Source of the DNA: Thermoanaerobaculia bacterium
GTDB lineage: Bacteria > Acidobacteriota > Thermoanaerobaculia > Gp7-AA8
DNA: 64,000 nucleotides
Reading direction: 5' to 3'
Assembly (NCBI GenBank): GCA_035996815.1
Contig: DASYJF010000145.1
Location: forward strand, 24,345-88,344
Numbering within the stretch: position 1 is the stretch's first letter; the number at the start of each line of letters is the position of its first letter. The position numbers and the translations under genes are program-made. Positions 2,676-29,461 of the stretch are shown piece after piece. A model generated the notes under the pieces. That model ran no database searches, was not told where the DNA came from, and saw only the letters and a program-made list of their open reading frames with translations.

Positions 2676-2762
2676 CGCGACAGAGCTTTTCACGCGGAGA
2701 CGCGGGGGCGCGGAGAAACCCGAATCCTCCTCCGCGTCTCCGCGACTCCGCGTGAAAAACGT
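2676..2762. repeat. Dispersed ~87-bp palindromic element, copy A, at the convergent junction prfC / GT39-like gene
   Basis: Internal inverted repeat ttttcacgcggagacgcgg / ccgcgactccgcgtgaaaa. Near-identical copy at 9430-9518. Confidence 0.6.
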
Positions 2763-4345
2763 CACCTTCGAAGCAGCATCGCGTTGAATCGCTCGCCGCG
2801 CCAGATGTTCTCAACGTGGTACTGCGCGCGCAGCAGCGCACCAGCCCGAAGGTCGTAATCGATGCCGAAGCCGCGCGCGCCGTACTCGCGCAGATCGCGG
2901 CTGACCATCAACACGCGATCAGGAGGATGCATCGTCAGCTCGCGCACGATCGCATCCTCCGTTTGCGGCGCATCGACTTCCACCGGCGTAAACGTGTGAA
3001 AGGAAAGTGTGGTCGGCACGTTCGCCAGATAGTTGATGGTGATGCCTTCCGGGATCACCGCCAGCGTCCCGCCCTGCACCGCGCCGATGACGCTGTTCAG
3101 CGTTCGCGCCCGATCAGCGTTCCAATCGTAAAAGATTCCCCGCGGCGACACGATCGCGTACCGCTTCTCCGCGTAGCGTTCGTGCTGTTGCCAGAGATCG
3201 CCGCCGGCGTTCGCGACGAATGGCGCGAGCCACAGGATGGCCATCACGTTCCGCCGCGGCAGATAGCAGAACAACGTGTATGCGGCCAGTGCGATCGTCG
3301 GAACCGTGAGCACGAAGCCGTACCAGGACGGCGAAACGTTCAACGGAATCCGGAGCGTGCAGGCCACCGAAAAGGCCGCGAAAATCACCAGCGGGCTCTC
3401 GCGGTCGCGCACGAGCGCCCATCCGAGCGCGATCCATTGCAGCACCGCCCAGGCCCGGAAGAAGGAATGGTCAGCGATCAGAACGGCAACGATCACGATG
3501 GCAATCGCCGCTAGCCAATGCCGCCATCGCTGCAGAAACAGAATCGCCGCGATGCCGGCAATGCCGGCGGCGATCTGCAGCAGTTGACCGCGCCAATCGG
3601 CGAATCCTGAGACGACCTCGAAGAAGTGCTTCGCCCGAGCACCGTGCTGCCACGCCGCAAAGACGTTCTCGCTCCACCAGTGCGTGTCGCGAAAGTAAAA
3701 CGCGACCGCCGCGATTGTCGCGATCATCGCGACGCAGTACGCCGCCAGTTGTCGCCACGAAATCCGCCTCGCTATCGTCAGGATGATTACGATCAACAAC
3801 CCCGCGACCGCGTACTCAAGCTTGCACCACGACGCCACTACCAGCGCGCTGATCGCGATCGCGTGCCGCGCGTGTACGAACGCGGCGAGCGCGATGCACA
3901 ACAACGTCATCCCTATCGTCACGCCGTAGCTGTACGGGAAGATGAAATTCGCGCCCCACGTCGACGCGCCGCAGAAGCACGTCGCCGCGAATGTCAGCGT
4001 CGCCGCGAATGCCGGCAACGGACGCCGTAACGCAATCCACAGCGATGCAGCAATCGTCGCCGACTGCGCGATCCCGATCGCCACATACGCCGTCAGCGAG
4101 TGACCGATCGCGCCGGTGATGAGCGCCAGCAAATACGGCGCAAGCGGCGGATATTGATAGCGGATGTCGCGATACAACTTCGCGCCGCGCGCAATCTGCT
4201 CCGGGATGTACAGATCGCGCCCCGTATCGATGATCGGATCGAGCCAGCGAGCGTAGGACTGGATGAATGCGAGCGCGGCGACGACAACAACGATTCCGAT
4301 GAAGACGGGTGTCAGGTGTCGGCTGTCAGGTGTCGGAGACTCATC
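2762..4345 (-). CDS. Polytopic membrane protein, GT39/ArnT-like glycosyltransferase fold (start uncertain, probably GTG)
   Basis: More than 10 predicted TM helices followed by a soluble C-terminal domain. The N-terminal 297 codons of the track ORF 2762..5275 overlap the upstream gene and are R/G-rich, so they were trimmed. Confidence 0.45.
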   Translation of the reverse strand, partial: DESPTPDSRHLTPVFIGIVVVVAALAFIQSYARWLDPIIDTGRDLYIPEQIARGAKLYRDIRYQYPPLAPYLLALITGAIGHSLTAYVAIGIAQSATIAASLWIALRRPLPAFAATLTFAATCFCGASTWGANFIFPYSYGVTIGMTLLCIALAAFVHARHAIAISALVVASWCKLEYAVAGLLIVIILTIARRISWRQLAAYCVAMIATIAAVAFYFRDTHWWSENVFAAWQHGARAKHFFEVVSGFADWRGQLLQIAAGIAGIAAILFLQRWRHWLAAIAIVIVAVLIADHSFFRAWAVLQWIALGWALVRDRESPLVIFAAFSVACTLRIPLNVSPSWYGFVLTVPTIALAAYTLFCYLPRRNVMAILWLAPFVANAGGDLWQQHERYAEKRYAIVSPRGIFYDWNADRARTLNSVIGAVQGGTLAVIPEGITINYLANVPTTLSFHTFTPVEVDAPQTEDAIVRELTMHPPDRVLMVSRDLREYGARGFGIDYDLRAGALLRAQYHVENIWRGERFNAMLLRR

Positions 4346-4383
4346 TCCCACGCCCAACTCCCGACTCCCCACTCCCCCGAATC

Positions 4384-5553
4384 TCACTCTTTCATCGTCT
4401 CCGGATCCACGCCCAGACTCCGGCATAGATCGACGTACGCAAACGGCGAAATCTCCGACGGCTTGATCTCGCTGCGGCCGCCCCAGAAAACGTTCGTGTA
4501 CGACACCGGCATCCCGATCTCGGCGAGGTAGTCGTCGATGGCGGCCTTGTGCGCGAGCACCGCATCCTTCTCCGTTCCGTGCGCGACCGCCATGATGTTC
4601 ACGTTGCGGAACTCCGGCCCCCCCTCGCGCCAGTAGCAATGCGTGAGGATGTCGAAGCGGCCGATCTCGCGCCCCGCCTCGATCTCGCGTCCCGGCGGCA
4701 CGGCCCAGTGGAACAGCGCGTTGAAACGCGTCACGCGTTCGCCGGTCTGCAGCGGCTTCACGTGCTCGAGAAACGTCGAGAAGCGCCCGATGACCTTGCG
4801 CGCGTTGAGCGACTCCGCCACTTCGAAGAATTGCTCCAGCGGCACTCCCGCTTCGGCGGCGCGAGTACGCCAGAGATCGCGCGTGAACTCCTCCGGCTCG
4901 ACCTCTCTCTTCAACGCGGTCAGCACGCGCCAATCGAGATCGGTCAGCGTCGCCTTGGTCGTGTCCTTCTCCTCGGCCAGTGCATCCGATTTCGATCCCG
5001 GCTCCATCCCCTTGCGGCGGACGTGACCGACGCCGAGGGCGAAGATGCGGTTCGCGGGCATCACGCGGAAATGTTCGGCGCCGGTGAGGCGGCCGATCAA
5101 AGCGCAATGCTTCTCGATCGAATACCCCTGCGGCACTTTCACCGTCGTCCACAACCGGTAGTTCGATCCGGGCGTAGCGGCGTCGGTGGAACGGATGACC
5201 ACGTGGCCGGAGAACGGATCGTCGTCCACCATGTACGCGAACGCCTCGTTGAGCTTCTCCTCCGGATACTGCCACGCCACCAGCGCACCCTCGGCGAGAT
5301 TCGTCGCCATCAGCGTCTGCCTTACTCGACGAATGGTCCCAGCGACGAGCATCGCCCGGATGCGCTCCATGACCGTCTCCGCATCGACGCCCGACTGCTC
5401 CGCGATCGTCCCGATCGGATCGCGCACGAATCCCTGAATGCGATCCTCGGAAACGGCCAGGATCTTCGCGTTGACGGGATCGGTATGGGCGATGGGGAGG
5501 TCAGTAACCGTGGACATAACGCTTCGAAGATTATCATGCAGGCCGTTTGACAA
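4384..5553 (-). CDS. Tandem Lrp/AsnC-like (HTH + ligand-binding) two-module protein, AhbAB/NirDL-like architecture
   Basis: Two repeated modules, each with an HTH-like segment (…AKILAVSEDRIQGFVRDPIGTIAEQSGVDAETVMERI… and …LDWRVLTALKREVEPEEFTRDLWRTRAAEAGVPLEQF…). Family assignment is tentative. Confidence 0.4.
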   Translation of the reverse strand: MSNGLHDNLRSVMSTVTDLPIAHTDPVNAKILAVSEDRIQGFVRDPIGTIAEQSGVDAETVMERIRAMLVAGTIRRVRQTLMATNLAEGALVAWQYPEEKLNEAFAYMVDDDPFSGHVVIRSTDAATPGSNYRLWTTVKVPQGYSIEKHCALIGRLTGAEHFRVMPANRIFALGVGHVRRKGMEPGSKSDALAEEKDTTKATLTDLDWRVLTALKREVEPEEFTRDLWRTRAAEAGVPLEQFFEVAESLNARKVIGRFSTFLEHVKPLQTGERVTRFNALFHWAVPPGREIEAGREIGRFDILTHCYWREGGPEFRNVNIMAVAHGTEKDAVLAHKAAIDDYLAEIGMPVSYTNVFWGGRSEIKPSEISPFAYVDLCRSLGVDPETMKE

Positions 5554-5582
5554 CGCTTCGCGCGCTGCCTTACCCTCACCGC

Positions 5583-5665
5583 TCCTGGACTGATTTGCGG
5601 GGCCGCTTGCAACCAGGTTAAAAAAAGCTAAAGAGCCGGCAGTAGGCCGTTCGACTCCGACTGAA
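5583..5665 (+). ncRNA. Candidate SAM-II/SAH-class riboswitch aptamer in the metH leader
   Basis: Putative promoter TTGACA(5547)-17 nt-TACCCT(5571). Hairpin cctgg…ccagg whose loop contains GCTTGC, and a 3' tail AAAAAAGCTAAAGAGC able to pair with the loop (pseudoknot), as I remember the SAM-II architecture. metH is a classic SAM-II/SAH riboswitch target. Confidence 0.35.
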
Positions 5666-5699
5666 GCCCCGCAATTTCAAGCGGGGCTTTTTCTTTTCT
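5666..5699 (+). terminator. Intrinsic terminator/attenuator hairpin 11 nt before the metH start codon
   Basis: gccccgc-aatttcaa-gcggggc stem-loop followed by a tttttcttttct U-tract. Confidence 0.6.
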
Positions 5700-5710
5700 G
5701 GAGATTCCGA

Positions 5711-8700
5711 ATGCCACAACCCGACCGTACCGCCGAACTTCGCGAACTGCTCGACCGCCGCATCCTCATTCTCGACGGCGCGATGGGGACGATGATCCAG
5801 CGCTACCGGCTCGATGAAGCCGGCTATCGCGGAACACAGTTCGCGACGCATTCGCGCGATCTCAAAGGCGCCAACGACATCCTCTGTCTCACGAATCCGA
5901 AGATCGTCGAAGAGATCCATCGCCAATATCTCGACGCCGGCGCCGACATCATCGAGACCAACACGTTCAACGCGCAGGCGATCTCGTTGGCCGATTACGA
6001 CCTCGTCGAATACGCCTACGACATCAACCTCGCCGCCGCGCGGCTTGCACGCGCCGCGTGCGACGCGTACTCGACTGCGGACCGTCCGCGTTTCGTGGCC
6101 GGCTCGCTCGGGCCGACCAACCGCACGGCCTCGCTCTCGCCCGACGTCAACAACCCTGCGTTTCGCGGCGTGTCGTTCGACGAGCTGGTCGACGCCTACT
6201 ACGACCAGATTCGCGGCCTCGTCGACGGCGGCTCAGACATCCTCATGCCGGAGACGACGTTCGATACGCTCAACCTCAAGGCCGCGCTCTTCGCGATCGA
6301 AAAGTACTTCGCCGACACCGGCATCCGCCTGCCGATCATCGCCTCGATCACCATCACCGACGCCTCGGGACGCACGCTTTCCGGACAGACCGTCGAAGCG
6401 TGCTGGAACTCGATCTCGCACGCGCCGCTCCTCGCCACCGGTATCAACTGCGCCCTCGGCGCGAAGGAGATGCGCCCGCACATCGAAGAGCTGGCGTCGA
6501 TCGCGCCGGTCTACCTCAGTTGCTATCCGAACGCCGGCCTTCCGAACGCGCTCGGCGAGTACGACCAGACGCCCGACGAGATGGCCGCGCTGCTGCACGA
6601 ATACGCCGGCAACAGCTGGATCAACATCGTCGGCGGCTGTTGCGGCACGACGCCCGATTTCGTTCGCGCCATCGCCGAAACCGTGAAGAGCTTTCCGCCG
6701 CGGAAGCCGCCGGTCATCGAGAAGCATCTGCGGCTCAGCGGACTGGAAGCGCTCACCGTCACGCCGGAGTCGAACTTCATCATGGTCGGCGAGCGCACCA
6801 ACGTCACCGGCTCGCCGAAGTTCGCGCAGCTCATCAAAGCAGGCGACATCGAGCCGGCGCTGGCAATCGCCAAACAGCAGATCGACGGCGGCGCGAACAT
6901 CCTCGACGTCAACATGGACGAGGGACTGCTCGACTCTGAGAAAGTGATGACGCACTTTCTGCACCTTGTCGCTTCGGAGCCAGACATCGCCCGCGTCCCG
7001 ATCATGATCGACTCGTCGAAATGGACGGTGCTCGAAGCGGGACTGAAATGCACGCAGGGAAAATCAGTCGTCAATTCGATCTCGCTGAAAGAGGGCGAAG
7101 AGAAGTTTCGCGAGCAGGCCCGCCTCATCAAACGCTACGGCGCGGCGGTGATCGTGATGGCGTTCGACGAACAGGGCCAGGCTGATTCGATCGAGCGCAA
7201 AGTCGCAATCTGTTCGCGGGCGTACGCGATCCTCGTCGACGAAGTTGGTTTCGATCCGACCGACGTCATCTTCGATCCGAATGTCCTCACCGTCGCCACC
7301 GGAATCGAAGAGCACAACAACTACGGCGTCGCCTTCATCGAAGCCGTCCGCCAGCTGCACGAGCGTTTTCCGCTGGCCAGTTTCTCCGGCGGCATCAGCA
7401 ACGTCTCGTTCTCATTCCGCGGCAACAAGACCGTGCGCGAGGCCATGCACGCCGCGTTTCTCTACCACGCCATCAAAGCCGGCCTGACCATGGGAATCGT
7501 CAACGCCGGGCAACTCGCGATTTACGACGAGATTCCGCCGGAGCTGCGCGATCTCGTCGAAGACGTACTGCTGAATCGCCGTTCCGACGCCACCGAGCGT
7601 CTGCTCACGTACGCCGATTCGATCAAAGGCCAAGGCGCAACGACCGCGAAGGAAGCAGAAGCGTGGCGCAGCGGAACCATCGAAGAGCGGCTCTCACACT
7701 CGCTCGTCAAGGGAATCATCGAGCACCTCGATGACGACGTCGAAGAAGCGCGGCAGAAGTATCCAAGCGCTCTCTCGATCATCGAAGGGCCGCTGATGGA
7801 CGGCATGAACGTCGTCGGCAATCTCTTCGGCGCCGGCAAGATGTTTCTCCCGCAGGTCGTAAAGAGCGCGCGCGTCATGAAGAAGGCGGTCGCGTATCTG
7901 CTGCCGTTCATGGAAGCGGAGAAAGCGAAAGCCGGCGATCTCTCACAGCGCGGCAAAGTGCTGATGGCGACGGTGAAGGGCGACGTTCACGACATCGGCA
8001 AGAACATCGTCGGCGTCGTTCTCGGCTGCAACAACTACGAAGTCATCGACCTCGGCGTGATGGTTTCGGCCGACAAGATTCTCGACACCGCCATTGCCGA
8101 AAAGGCCGACATCATCGGCCTCTCCGGCCTGATCACGCCGTCGCTCGATGAGATGGTTCACGTGGCGCGCGAGATGGAACGCCGCAGCTTCACCGTCCCG
8201 ATGCTCATCGGCGGAGCCACCACTTCCAAATTGCACACCGCCGTGAAAATCGCGCCGCGCTATTCGCACGCGACCGTCCACGTGCTCGACGCCTCGCGCG
8301 CCGTCGGCGTGGTCAGCACGCTGCTCTCCGATCGCAAGGACGAATTCGTCCGCGAGCGCAACGCCGAGTACGAGCATCTCCGCGAAGCGCAGGCCAAACG
8401 TCAGGATGTGGTGAAGATCCTGCCGCTCGAAACCGCGCGCCGCCGCAAACCATCGCTCACCTTTTCTCCCGACCGTCCACCCTTCCTCGGCGTGCGCGTT
8501 CTCGATGACGTTCCACTCGAACGCATCGAGCCGTTCATCGACTGGAATCCGTTCTTTTCCGCGTGGGAACTGCGCGGGCGCTTCCCGCAGATCCTCGACG
8601 AGCCGCGCGCGAAAGAGCTGTACGAAGACGGCCAGCACCTGCTGCGCGAGATCATCGACAACCGCCTGATCCGCGCCACCGCCGTCTACGGTTTCTGGCC

Positions 8701-9430
8701 CGCGAATTCAGTCAGTGACGATATCGAGCTTTACTCCGACGAATCGCGCAGCAACGTCATCGCCCGCTTCCACACGCTGCGGCAACAGCAGGAAACGAAC
8801 ACCGGCCAGAACTTCGCCCTCTCCGATTTCATCGCACCGAAGGAGAGCGGCATCATCGACTACGTTGGCGGCTTCGCCGTCACCGCCGGCATTGGAGTCG
8901 GCGACGTCGTCGCTCGATTCGAAAAAGATCACGACGACTACAACGCCATCATGACCAAAGCGCTCGCCGATCGTTTGGCCGAGGGGTTGACAGAGCTGCT
9001 GCACAAAGAGACGCGCGCCGGGTGGTACGCGCCGGATGAAAACCTGTCGAGCGACGAACTGATCGCCGAAAAGTATCGAGGCATCCGTCCCGCGCCCGGA
9101 TATCCCGCCTCGCCCGACCACACCGAAAAAGCCACACTCTTCTCACTCCTCGGCGCCGAGCGCGCCGGAATCGAACTGACCGAAAACTTCGCCATGATGC
9201 CCGCCGCTTCCGTCAGCGGCCTGTACTTCGCGCATCCGCAATCGAAATACTTCGCCGTCGGCAAAATCGGACGCGACCAGGTCGCGGATTACCACGTCCG
9301 CAAAGACATGCCGCTGCCAGCGATCGAACGCTGGCTCGCGCCGGCCCTGGCGTACGAGCCGGAGCAAGCCCCGGATCCAACTGTCTGCTCCTGCGGCGCT
9401 ACGCATGGTGCTGTCGCGGCAAAGAGCTAA
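5711..9430 (+). CDS. metH: Cobalamin-dependent methionine synthase
   Basis: 1239 aa. Hcy-binding [11 protein letters not shown], pterin-binding, B12-binding ([11 protein letters not shown]) and AdoMet-activation domains are all recognisable. Confidence 0.95.
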
Positions 9431-16582: not shown

Positions 16583-16658
16583 TGGCTCCGGCAGTAGGAC
16601 TCGAACCTACGACCCACGGATTAACAGTCCGTTGCTCTACCAACTGAGCTATGCCGGA
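16583..16658 (-). tRNA. tRNA-Asn (anticodon GTT)
   Basis: Reverse complement gives TCCGGCATAGCTCAGTTGGTAGAGCAACGGACTGTTAATCCGTGGGTCGTAGGTTCGAGTCCTACTGCCGGAGCCA. The cloverleaf folds, the anticodon loop is CTGTTAA, and CCA is encoded. Confidence 0.9.
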
Positions 16659-16709: not shown

Positions 16710-17171
16710 TCAACGTGGGGGCAAACCGAGGGGGGTGGCAGTGTATTTCGCGAGGGCGGAGGTCAGGCGCGGGAGCAAATCGGCGAGTTCGGAGTACTCG
16801 ATCAGGTCGATTTCGCGGTCGCCGGCGACCATGGCCGTGCAGCGCGATGTGTGCGCCGGCCGGTAGAGGCAGATGACCGGGATTCCGTAGCGGTAGCGGG
16901 CGGTGGCGATCTCGTATCCGACTCCCGTCGACGGCATCGACGCTTCGGCCACGAGCACGTCGGCGGCGGCGATCCAGGCGAGGTCGCGGTCGAAGATCGG
17001 GCAGGAGTCGAGCGCCTCGCCGGATGCGGTCACATGTTCCGCGGCTACTGCGCCGGCGAGCACGTGATGGCCTGCGGCTTCGAGTGCCGCGATGATCTCG
17101 CGATACAGCGCGACGTCGCCGCGGCCTCCGCTGATTGCGCCGGCGAAGTAGATCGTTCTTTTGACTTTCAT
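16710..17171 (-). CDS. 2'-deoxynucleoside 5'-phosphate N-hydrolase (DNPH1/Rcl-like; nucleoside 2-deoxyribosyltransferase superfamily)
   Basis: TIYFAGAISGGRGD…LYREIIAAL…DRDLAWIAAADVLVAEASMPSTGVGYEIATA…ICLYRP closely parallels the DNPH1 sequence as I recall it. Confidence 0.65.
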   Translation of the reverse strand: MKVKRTIYFAGAISGGRGDVALYREIIAALEAAGHHVLAGAVAAEHVTASGEALDSCPIFDRDLAWIAAADVLVAEASMPSTGVGYEIATARYRYGIPVICLYRPAHTSRCTAMVAGDREIDLIEYSELADLLPRLTSALAKYTATPLGLPPR

Positions 17172-17254
17172 CCTGCGTGAGCGCAGCGAGCGTCAGGATC
17201 TCCAGTTGGCGCGGTTCCACCGGAGATCCTGACGATCGCTGCGCTCACGCAGGA
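17170..17254. promoter_or_regulatory. 34-bp-arm near-perfect inverted repeat (1 mismatch, 17-nt spacer) over the start of the DNPH1-like gene and the rng leader
   Basis: atcctgcgtgagcgcagcgagcgtcaggatctcc … ggagatcctgacgatcgctgcgctcacgcaggat. Confidence 0.7.
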
Positions 17255-27429: not shown

Positions 27430-27628
27430 GGATGCGTGCGGAAAAACCTGGCATCGGGCTGCAAAGGTTTCGAAAGTATAGCAGTTCCTTCCGGAGTGAA
27501 ACTGCGGGTTTCGTCGCGGAAAAGCGAAGGAGATTTCCTCCGTTTTCCGCAGTCGTCGGGCATCGCGCGAGCGGCGCCTTTTTTGTCCGCAGGATTTGGT
27601 GGGACGTTTCCGCAGGGGCTGTGGATTT
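27430..27628. promoter_or_regulatory. Putative oriC module 1: a cluster of at least 6 DnaA-box-like 9-mers (TTTTCCGCA family) in the dnaN–dnaA spacer
   Basis: tgcggaaaa 27437-45; gcggaaaag 27516-24; ttttccgca 27543-51; ttgtccgca 27583-91; gtttccgca 27606-14; tgtggattt 27620-28. Confidence 0.45.
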
Positions 27629-28935
27629 CATCGAAACTGATTCATCAGCCCTTCGAGCACGCGCGCGAACTGCGGATCGTTCTGCATCTTCTCGTCGATC
27701 TTTTCGACCGAGTACATCACCGTCGAGTGATGCTTGTTATTGAAGACGCGGCCGATCTCCGGGTACGACAGATCCGTCAGGTGCTTGCAGAGATACATGG
27801 CCACCTGGCGCGGGAAGGCGACCGTCTGCGCGTTCGACTTCGACTTCAGATTCGTGACCGTCGTTCCGTAGTGCGCGGCGACGACGCGCATGATCTCGGT
27901 CGACGTAATCGGCTTGTTTTCCTTCGACAGCAGTTCTTTCAACGCTTCCTTCGTCAGTTCGAGTGAAAGGTGCTTTTGCCCTGCCATCGAGGCGTACACG
28001 ACGATGCGGTTGAGCAGTCCTTCCAGTTCGCGAATGTTCGTGCGCACGCGCTCGGCCACGAACAGCGCCGCGTCCTGCGGTAGATCGATCGTTCTCTCAT
28101 CGGCTTTTTTGCGGAGGATAGCCACCTTGGTCTCGAGGTCCGGCGGCTGGATGTCGGCGATGAGGCCCCATTCGAATCGCGAGCGAAGGCGCTCCTCGAG
28201 CGTCGTGATTTCTTTCGGCGGAGCATCCGAGGTGAAGACGATCTGCTTCTGGGCCTCGTAGAGCGCGTTGAAGGTATGGAAGAACTCCTCCTGCGTCTGC
28301 TCTTTGCCCGCCAGGAACTGAATGTCGTCGAGAAGCAGCGCGTCCACCTTGCGATAGCGGTCGCGGAACTGCTGCATGCGGTCGTAACGGATTGAGGTAA
28401 TGAACTCCGTGACGAAGGAGTCGGCCGACATGTAGACGATTTTCGATCCGGACATACTGTCGCGAAGCTGTTGGCCGATGGCTTGGATCAGATGGGTCTT
28501 GCCCAATCCGGCGCCGCCATAGATGAAGAGCGGATTTAAGGATCTCGCTGGATTCTCCGCGATCGACTTCGACGCCGCGAAGGCCAGCTCGTTCGACTTG
28601 CCGACTACGAACGTCTCGAACCGGTAGCGCGGATTGAAAATCGAGAGGGGCAGGTCGGTCGGCGGCGGTCCGAGCGGGACGTTCATCTCGCTGGTGCCCT
28701 CGGTGTCGGCGACGAGGTGCAGGTTGAGATGATCCGTCGACATCTCGTCGAGGATGGATCGGATCTGCTGCGCGTAGTTCTGGCGGATCTCGGACACGAA
28801 CCGCTGGGAAGGGACGCTTACGTCGATCGTGTCGCCCTTCTGGGCGAGGAAACGGGTCGGAGCGAACCACGTCTCAAATTGAGTCCTGTCAATGGTTTGC
28901 TCCAGCCGGTCGAGGACTTGCTTCCAGAGATTCAT
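27628..28935 (-). CDS. dnaA: Chromosomal replication initiator DnaA (start at MNLWKQV; the upstream 88 codons of the track ORF only translate a microsatellite)
   Basis: AAA+ Walker A GGAGLGKTHL and a domain IV HTH (…VAFPRQVAMYLCKHLTDLSYPEIGRVFN…HSTV). Confidence 0.9.
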   Translation of the reverse strand: MNLWKQVLDRLEQTIDRTQFETWFAPTRFLAQKGDTIDVSVPSQRFVSEIRQNYAQQIRSILDEMSTDHLNLHLVADTEGTSEMNVPLGPPPTDLPLSIFNPRYRFETFVVGKSNELAFAASKSIAENPARSLNPLFIYGGAGLGKTHLIQAIGQQLRDSMSGSKIVYMSADSFVTEFITSIRYDRMQQFRDRYRKVDALLLDDIQFLAGKEQTQEEFFHTFNALYEAQKQIVFTSDAPPKEITTLEERLRSRFEWGLIADIQPPDLETKVAILRKKADERTIDLPQDAALFVAERVRTNIRELEGLLNRIVVYASMAGQKHLSLELTKEALKELLSKENKPITSTEIMRVVAAHYGTTVTNLKSKSNAQTVAFPRQVAMYLCKHLTDLSYPEIGRVFNNKHHSTVMYSVEKIDEKMQNDPQFARVLEGLMNQFR

Positions 28936-29130
28936 CGCGGATTTCACAGAGGGCACGGCCAAGTCCACTGACTCTAATAATCCGCAGCTTTTCAACACCT
29001 GCGGAAAATCCGGACCTGAAAAAGGGGAGGCGAAGATAGCACAAACGTAGGAGTGGGGAGTGGCATTGGGATCCTCGGGAGTCGGGAGCCGGAAGCCCGG
29101 AGATTGACGAAGGGATATGCGTTCGCCTTT

Positions 29131-29172
29131 CCGACCCCCGACCCCCGACCCCCGACCCCCGACCCCCGACCC
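29131..29172. repeat. Hexanucleotide microsatellite (CCGACC)x6 plus one imperfect unit, upstream of dnaA; G-rich on the opposite strand (GGGGGTC)n
   Basis: Read directly. Flanked by the inverted pair gtaggagtggggagtgg (29047-63) / ccactccccactccctac (29198-215). Confidence 0.85.
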
Positions 29173-29326
29173 CCGAGGCCCCGATCTCCCACTCCCCACT
29201 CCCTACACCCCACTCCCCGGAATAGCCCGCTATGACCAATGGTTCCGCCCCGTCGCTGGCTGGTTTGACGACCTTCCGACCCGCCGCTATACTCCCCGCC
29301 TTCTTTTTCAGAAGCTTAAGGAAATC

Positions 29327-29461
29327 ATGAAGCGTACATTTCAGCCGAATAACCGCCGCCGCAAGCGCACGCACGGCTTTCTGGTCCGGATGCGGACCAA
29401 AGACGGGCAGGCGGTGCTTTCACGGCGCCGCCGCAAGGGCCGCAAGCGCCTGGCGGTCTAG
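29327..29461 (+). CDS. rpmH: 50S ribosomal protein L34
   Basis: [44 protein letters not shown]. Confidence 0.9.

Follow-up and report, generated by a model that had tools for sequence, protein, structure and literature searches.

The SAM-II riboswitch (metA motif, Rfam family RF00521) was described in 2005 in front of methionine and S-adenosylmethionine (SAM) genes (PMC1273637). Its leaders usually carry near-consensus -35 and -10 hexamers a few nucleotides before helix P1, with a terminator located between P2 and the open reading frame (ORF) (PMC1273637, Corbino et al. 2005), and the reported distribution comprises alpha-, beta- and gamma-Proteobacteria and Bacteroidetes (PMC2258182, PMC1273637). 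A long-loop variant, RF01726, was described from Bacteroidetes and marine metagenomes (Weinberg et al. 2010). Here we analyze the leader of metH, the gene of cobalamin-dependent methionine synthase, in a Thermoanaerobaculia bacterium (assembly GCA_035996815.1, contig DASYJF010000145.1, positions 24,345 to 88,344 of the forward strand); this stretch of 64,000 nucleotides (nt) is referred to as the window, and coordinates are those of the window unless another locus is named. Thermoanaerobaculia is a class of Acidobacteriota according to a lineage look-up, and no description of SAM-II in Acidobacteria was found in the literature, the distribution figure of McCown 2017 being left out of account.

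SAM-II elements are mostly associated with terminators and regarded as transcriptional (PMC2258182; PMC6061858). By 2007, the way in which they control genes had not been established by experiment (PMC2258182), and it was unstudied before the 2022 work on Sinorhizobium meliloti (PMC9373788). In the metZ leader of that organism, the predicted outcome of SAM binding is the terminator fold, with a terminated small RNA as product (PMC9373788).

The sequence of the window leader, its relatives and its predicted folds make it very probable that it acts on metH as a SAM-responsive transcriptional OFF switch of the SAM-II class. The element belongs to a known class; it is a new member, and represents a new lineage under the standard thresholds, with an unusually legible antiterminator, and it is no new kind of element. 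With RF00521 it shares P1, the GAUUU, GCUUGCA and GCUAAAG motifs, the A-rich L3 and P2a in a full-model alignment, together with a promoter that precedes P1 by a few nucleotides, a terminator that separates P2 from the ORF, and a methionine/SAM gene downstream. It differs from RF00521 in its score (32.1 bits against 36), in a P1 of 5 base pairs (bp) with the strand CCUGG, in an L3 shorter by 2 nt, in a P2a of 3 bp instead of about 5-6, in a G-tract of the loop that doubles as predicted antiterminator strand, and in a host from Acidobacteriota (Thermoanaerobaculia) in place of the reported Proteobacteria and Bacteroidetes.

The long-loop variant RF01726 has the same A-run followed by GCUAAAG, but the inner loop stem of this model is unsupported in the window sequence. 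The SAM-II leaders of S. meliloti metZ and metA (Scheuer et al. 2022) likewise place a Rho-independent terminator after the aptamer. They differ in host, gene and expression-platform sequence, and the metA terminator appears SAM-independent, whereas in the window leader the aptamer loop is coupled to the terminator through a proposed antiterminator pairing that covaries. SAM-V (RF01826; Huang and Lilley 2018) resembles the fold proposed here in its H-type pseudoknot, major-groove triplex and SAM pocket, but it is translational, has a 2-bp P2a containing the Shine-Dalgarno sequence and an extra P3, and its model does not match the window leader. The SAM-I (S-box, RF00162) leaders of metH and yitJ have the same regulatory logic and target genes with an unrelated aptamer fold, a four-way junction.

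The metH leader matches the SAM-II covariance models

A scan of the whole window at Rfam gathering thresholds returned a transfer RNA (tRNA) as the sole match. The gathering scores are 36 bits for RF00521 (SAM_alpha) and 44 bits for RF01726. Scans in E-value mode, in which the whole 64 kb were compared with all 4227 Rfam families and 5480-5730 was scanned locally, revealed both SAM-II models at the metH leader. RF00521 matches 5575-5651 with 32.1 bits and RF01726 matches 5579-5641 with 35.9 bits, in both cases end to end; the local E-value is about 1e-5 for each, and the whole-window E-values are 0.0022 and 0.004, respectively. The gathering score is a curated operating threshold and no structural feature, and the E-values are still significant. 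All conserved core nucleotides of the models are present, with aligned blocks GAUUUG, GCUUGCA, GUUAAA and GCUAAAG and an A-rich linker. Small deletions occur in the alignment within the loop and L3 and ahead of P2a; it is probably these, together with the shorter P1, that lower the scores.

An earlier reading of the sequence alone, referred to below as the first-pass annotation, had offered two candidate classes for this leader, SAM-II and S-adenosylhomocysteine (SAH). Of these, SAM-II is borne out by the two full-length alignments. The SAH (RF01057), SAM/SAH (RF01727) and SAM-V (RF01826) models are absent from the 11 matches obtained at E <= 10 in 5480-5730 and from the whole-window scan at E <= 0.1, and SAM-I (RF00162) has no match within the window. 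To treat the lack of a covariance-model hit as grounds for rejection, as the same annotation had proposed, would wrongly dismiss SAM-II, because the match lies under the gathering scores: the default scan is silent on it, and only the E-value mode reports RF00521 and RF01726.

The leader is conserved in front of metH

Relatives were collected through a search with the N-terminal domain of MetH, independently of the RNA and with one genome per species. The closest MetH loci belong to eight metagenome-assembled genomes (MAGs) labelled Thermoanaerobaculia or Acidobacteriota, with 73-91% protein identity. A sub-threshold SAM-II match lies about 55-145 nt before the metH ATG in all eight, which answers the question, raised with the initial proposal, of whether close relatives keep the leader. 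The aptamer core is nearly invariant among them, while flanks and linker diverge. Because two SAM-II models match (E 0.0022 and 0.004) and the arrangement recurs in 8/8 genomes, the combination of features is not a product of chance.

A degenerate pattern scan for the window-type variant in metagenomes gave at least 120 loci, many with soil-type sample names of the Joint Genome Institute (JGI) and some with leaders identical to that of the window. Together with the genomes, the matches listed comprise 129 instances and 116 unique leaders, and the leader counts given below refer to these listed matches. Since GAUUU, GCUUGC, the A-run and GCUAAAGAG were prescribed by the pattern, the conservation of these motifs in the metagenomes is uninformative and only the eight protein-ascertained genomes count for it.

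The genes downstream of the leaders were classified by tblastn. Among the 116 unique leaders listed, 87 precede metH and three more with short flanks visibly start metH; 12 stand before a 620-residue fusion of homocysteine methyltransferase and MetF (YitJ-like) and one before metF. The downstream sequence is too short for classification in 13/116, and an unrelated gene was found after none of the 103 classifiable leaders among the matches listed.

An Rfam scan of 28 relatives (the eight genomes L001-L008 and 20 diverse metagenome members) places most of the family close to the curated limits. RF01726 is the best-scoring model for most members, with 28-40.6 bits, all under 44. The lineage as a whole lies just under the curated cut-offs, since a single relative (L157, RF00521, 36.1 bits) reaches a gathering score.

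At more distant MetH loci, namely in a Blastocatellia MAG and in MAGs labelled Dadabacteria, Planctomycetales and Actinomycetota, a SAM-II match was not found. Among 20 further MetH loci, SAM-I precedes metH in seven, mostly in Bacteroidota, and a Burkholderiales MAG (L017) has a canonical SAM-II element before metH (1864-1941 of its locus, 42 bits). With SAM-I and SAM-II leaders both found, metH appears to be under SAM-riboswitch control in several phyla by way of different aptamer classes. The SAM-I matches stand before the MetH homologues that come next in closeness after the eight genomes (L009-L014, L028 and L032, at about 1520-1900 of the respective loci) and score 61-77 bits; besides Bacteroidota, the carriers are an Ignavibacteria MAG and a MAG labelled Janthinobacterium.

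Aptamer architecture

The aptamer is modeled as an H-type pseudoknot (Table 1). The cctgg/ccagg hairpin with GCTTGC in its loop, as first annotated, is present, with GCUUGC at 5605-5610. The pairing of this loop with the A-rich tail (AAAAAAAGCUAAAGAGC, 5620-5636) is retained in altered form: homology with the solved structures of SAM-V and of SAM-II does not pair GCUUGC simply with the tail but places UUGC against GC[U]AA, with a bulged U, and adds the P2a helix GGC:GCC. In P2b, U5607, U5608, G5609 and C5610 are predicted to pair with G5627, C5628, [U5629], A5630 and A5631. The template for this register is the SAM-V structure, with pairs U20:A48 and U19:A49 and a bulged U47 (PMC6061858). By analogy with that structure, the bulged U5629 is presumed to be the partner of the SAM adenine, and the two U:A pairs of P2b would be those that form U:A.U triples with GAUUU beside the sulfonium. 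The GAUUU of L1, which is invariant in the nine protein-ascertained sequences, would accordingly serve as the third strand of the triplex, as in the structures of SAM-V and of SAM-II (PMC6061858). The 3' pseudoknot strand (5627-5637) is also invariant in the protein-ascertained relatives.

Compensatory changes are observed in P1 and P2a. Among the 116 unique leaders listed, P1 reads CCUGG/CCAGG in 96 and GCUGG/CCAGC in 13. In alignment A3, 22 rows have CG and 11 have GC at the P1 pair of columns 4:39, and the P1 helix is 97.8% paired; one leader (L146) has an entirely different P1, AGCAC/GUGCU. Of the 21 loop/tail types, all except two, which comprise nine leaders, have the complete set of three P2a pairs, and P2a is changed in a compensatory manner in L097 (GCC:GGC) and L146 (UCC:GGA). 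Across 36 representatives, 98.6% of the cells are paired, against 94.8% in shuffles, and two pairs have changed on both sides.

An alternative register of P2a, GCCG (5602-5605) with CGGC (5637-5640), forms in the majority types and was nevertheless rejected. It fails without compensation in many minor types and completely in L146, and it is not the register of RF00521.

An intrinsic terminator and a proposed competing antiterminator

As first annotated, a terminator hairpin with a U tract stands between the aptamer and metH; the tract ends 11 nt upstream of the ATG at 5711. The terminator stem alone has a predicted energy of -19.4 kcal/mol. A terminator follows the aptamer in 99 of the 106 unique leaders with enough downstream sequence among the matches listed. 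The suggestion of attenuation made on the basis of this hairpin is strengthened by this recurrence and by an alternative, covarying antiterminator pairing.

The G-rich segment UUGCGGGGC of the P1 loop is complementary over 9 bp to GCCCCGCAA (5666-5674) in the 5' arm of the terminator. The duplex energy of this pairing, -19.3 kcal/mol, compares with -20.8 kcal/mol for the terminator arms. The segment shares U5595 and U5596 with the triplex and G5601-C5603 with P2a of the predicted ligand-bound fold; since these nucleotides are common to both, antiterminator and ligand-bound fold are mutually exclusive. The antiterminator is the minimum-energy fold of the window transcript ending at 5676, and in 91 of 102 leaders among the matches listed the corresponding fold of the truncated transcript contains 6 or more of its pairs. 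The mean loop/arm duplex energy is -19.2 kcal/mol over 75 distinct combinations among the matches listed. For the full window leader, the computed energies of the two states differ little, with -41.7 kcal/mol for the terminator and -37.9 kcal/mol for the antiterminator.

Loop and terminator arm covary. The flanks pair as GGGGCAGC with GCUGCCCC in L085, GGGGCUG with CAGCCCC in L086, GGGGGCCGC with GCGGCCCCC in L092, GGGGCGG with CCGCCCC in L112 and GGGGUCG with CGACCCC in L120. For 59 distinct combinations, the contiguous pairs beyond the G-run number 2.53, against 1.93 +/- 0.09 after permutation, and none of 5000 permutations reaches the observed value in this test, which takes the sequences without correction for relatedness. 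In the canonical SAM-II leader of the Burkholderiales MAG (L017), loop-to-terminator pairing is not seen in truncated folds, and for this reason the antiterminator design is not claimed to be general for SAM-II.

Attenuation by a leader peptide is improbable: AUG and GUG are absent from the leader, and the one open frame in it begins with UUG and spans 8 codons, none of them for Met.

Table 1. Positions of metH and of the leader elements in the window
Feature	Position	Strand	Basis
-35-like hexamer TTGACA	5547..5552	+	read directly
-10-like hexamer TACCCT, 18-nt spacer	5571..5576	+	read directly
Aptamer, predicted H-type pseudoknot	5584..5637	+	match to RF00521 and RF01726
P1 hairpin, CCUGG (5584-5588) : CCAGG (5613-5617), 24-nt loop	5584..5617	+	models, folding
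L1 GAUUU, putative U-rich third strand of triplex	5592..5596	+	aligns to conserved GAUUU of RF00521/RF01726
Candidate antiterminator strand UUGCGGGGC in P1 loop, G-rich, between GAUUU and GCUUGC	5595..5603	+	complementarity, folding, covariation
P2a 5' strand GGC, pairs with GCC 5635-5637	5601..5603	+	RF00521 consensus register (CCGGCC:GGCCGG)
P2b 5' strand UUGC, predicted to pair with GC[U]AA 5627-5631	5607..5610	+	aligns to conserved GCUUGCA
L3, A-rich linker UUAAAAAAA	5618..5626	+	aligns to GUUAAAcAA of RF00521, 2-nt deletion
3' pseudoknot strand GCUAAAGAGCC: P2b 3' (5627-5631) and P2a 3' (5635-5637)	5627..5637	+	model alignment
Variable linker between aptamer and terminator, small predicted hairpins	5638..5662	+	poorly conserved in alignment A1
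Intrinsic terminator: GAAGCCCCGC (5663-5672), 8-nt loop, GCGGGGCUUU (5681-5690), U tract to 5699	5663..5699	+	terminator scan
Shine-Dalgarno GGAG, 7 nt before ATG	5700..5703	+	read directly; GGAG/GGAGA kept in alignment A1 of relatives
metH, cobalamin-dependent methionine synthase, 1239 residues, target of the leader	5711..9430	+	five Pfam domains

Promoter

The two promoter hexamers recognized in the first pass are present and conserved in position, with a spacer of 18 nt and not the 17 nt given there. A consensus promoter scan reported no promoter at the leader, because TACCCT fits TATAAT at only 3/6 positions. Essentially all of the 115 unique upstream regions among the matches listed have a TANNNT hexamer 19-22 nt before the T of UGAUUU, and in 79 of these 115 a TTGACA-like hexamer (<= 2 mismatches) is located 16-18 nt upstream of the -10-like hexamer. 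From the placement of the hexamers, transcription would start at about 5581-5583, that is, 1-3 nt before P1.

Proposed mechanism

We consider the following antiterminator model probable, with somewhat less assurance than the assignment of the leader as a SAM-II OFF switch. Transcription would begin 1-3 nt before P1. The 3' half of the P1 loop (GGC...UUGC) would then pair with the downstream GC[U]AA...GCC to give P2b and P2a, and the GAUUU of the loop would sit in the groove of P2b as a third strand, creating the pocket for SAM. In the absence of SAM, the loop segment at 5595-5603 would remain free and capture GCCCCGCAA once this has been transcribed, so that the terminator would be blocked and RNA polymerase would read into metH. 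With SAM bound, the triplex and P2a would hold five nucleotides of the segment, the 5' arm would pair with GCGGGGCUUU, and polymerase would stop in the U tract, turning metH off. The switch is expected to operate under kinetic control.

Several points weigh against this assignment and the mechanism drawn from it. The leader scores under both Rfam gathering thresholds. The covariation of P1 comes down to essentially one base pair within a closely related clade, and the four pairs of P2b, complementary but invariant, were fixed by the metagenome pattern, so P2b has no covariation support. P2a has 3 bp here, while it has 5 bp and is C-G rich in 60% of SAM-II riboswitches (PMC6061858). The antiterminator permutation test carries the lack of a relatedness correction. 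Equilibrium favors the terminator state of the full window leader, which is why the model requires kinetic control. Finally, should P1 stay formed, the antiterminator pairing would make a pseudoknot in its own right, and its energies were computed without P1 in place.

Alternative explanations

The aptamer might be SAM-II while its terminator is constitutive or mainly yields a stable riboswitch-derived small RNA, with metH regulated through translation or the promoter. Such an arrangement has a precedent in S. meliloti metA, where the terminator after the SAM-II aptamer is not predicted to be SAM-responsive and generates small RNAs (PMC9373788), and it would agree with the equilibrium fold of the window leader, which consists of P1 plus terminator. 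Translational control also exists in the family, as the terminator-free L003 type and the L132 leader, whose aptamer tail abuts the ATG, indicate (see below). Against it stand the conservation of the antiterminator complementarity, its covariation with the terminator flank and its presence in the nascent minimum-energy fold of most leaders, 91/102 of those listed. In the window leader, moreover, the Shine-Dalgarno sequence is located outside the aptamer and the terminator stem, with no sequestering structure apparent. We regard this explanation as unlikely, yet as the most serious competitor of a SAM-responsive terminator.

A leader that senses SAH, or both SAM and SAH, would instead activate metH as SAH builds up. 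SAH riboswitches are known to act on metH in some Proteobacteria, and SAM/SAH aptamers are likewise small pseudoknots. However, no SAH, SAM/SAH or SAM-V model matches the leader even at the permissive limit of the local scan, and the logic of terminator and antiterminator suits an OFF switch. The UU/AA positions of the sulfonium-facing U:A.U triples, which are the basis of SAH rejection, are present as well (PMC6061858, PMC1273637). Sensing of SAH is thus very improbable. Even less credence is due to a fortuitous likeness to SAM-II, in which a conserved promoter, leader and terminator would answer to a protein or lack regulation altogether. The scores under the curated thresholds and the sparse covariation within the clade speak for it, but each of two independent SAM-II models is aligned from end to end, the flanks vary among relatives with MetH at 73-78% identity while the core motifs stay unchanged, and L157 reaches the RF00521 threshold. 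The association with methionine-cycle genes is exclusive among the matches listed, and a Met-rich leader peptide is lacking.

Variation within the family

Five leaders (L003, L093, L125, L172 and L187) with the loop GCGUGGCC form a terminator-free subclade. In the L003 type (e.g., L003 1893-2012), the post-aptamer segment GGCGUUCGUC is predicted to pair with GACGACGCC at the Shine-Dalgarno/start region, which suggests a translational platform. In L132 (about 6497-6580 of that locus), the aptamer tail AAAGAGCC directly abuts the metH ATG, the classic translational SAM-II arrangement in a clade whose members otherwise use terminators, and the purine-rich 3' strand of P2 probably acts as the ribosome-binding site.

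Repetitive or palindromic insertions are observed between the riboswitch terminator and the gene in L106, L153, L154, L160 and L171. They include AUCCCGAGCGAAGCGAGGGAU hairpins and arrays of units resembling GCGTTAGG, and the leader is stretched to 140-190 nt. These insertions may be small mobile repeats.

Genomic context

The leader occupies the intergenic region 5518-5710 between two divergent genes. The ORF downstream was annotated as metH from the outset, and its product has the five domains of this enzyme, S-methyl_trans, Pterin_bind, B12-binding_2, B12-binding and Met_synt_B12 (Pfam, E = 2e-19 to 1.3e-113). The divergent neighbor on the minus strand, at 4384-5517 with its ATG at 5517, is an AsnC/NirD-like gene (AsnC_trans_reg2/NirDL-like). 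It is overlapped in another frame by an ORF of 837 residues without a Pfam match (2762-5275, minus strand), which is probably a GC-rich shadow frame.

Two further structured segments were noted elsewhere in the window. A near-perfect palindrome of 84 nt at 17171-17254 (plus strand), at a distance of about 500 nt from the tRNA gene (16586-16658), folds into a hairpin with an energy of -70.4 kcal/mol (z = -11.7) and may represent an element resembling repetitive extragenic palindromes (REP) or miniature inverted-repeat transposable elements (MITE), or a strong bidirectional terminator. A hairpin of 155 nt at 29049-29203 (minus strand; -112 kcal/mol, z = -9.0), one arm of which is a tandem (GGGGGUC)n repeat, has a sub-threshold match to a plant microRNA (miRNA) model (45.6 bits, with the cut-off at 168) and overlaps the long minus-strand ORFs 27628-29199 and 28889-29374. 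In two of the related genomes, long hairpins about 1.4 kb upstream of metH (L001 534-618 and L005 556-628) give sub-threshold matches to several miRNA-precursor models on both strands, and may be palindromic repeats like those of the window.

Implications

Nothing known is overturned by these results: SAM-II is an established class with known ligand and target genes, and its use of terminators is likewise established. A more speculative proposal, which we put forward tentatively and consider rather doubtful, is that the Acidobacteriota elements form a distinct SAM-II subtype, with a 3-bp P2a and a P1-loop G-tract that takes part in two exclusive pseudoknots. These could be the SAM-bound P2/triplex on the one hand and, on the other, an antiterminator of 9-11 bp formed with the terminator's 5' arm. 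If true, the subtype would provide a covariation-backed switching mechanism for transcriptional SAM-II, whose platform logic has so far been poorly defined, and would extend SAM-II to a phylum overlooked by standard annotation.

The family is a clean model of a SAM-II pseudoknot coupled to an intrinsic terminator, with covariation support. Default Rfam annotation would pass over the window leader, and with it an extensive family of metH and yitJ-like leaders from soil Acidobacteriota, represented by at least 120 metagenome loci. On that annotation, the regulation of methionine and SAM metabolism in Acidobacteriota would wrongly look free of riboswitches.

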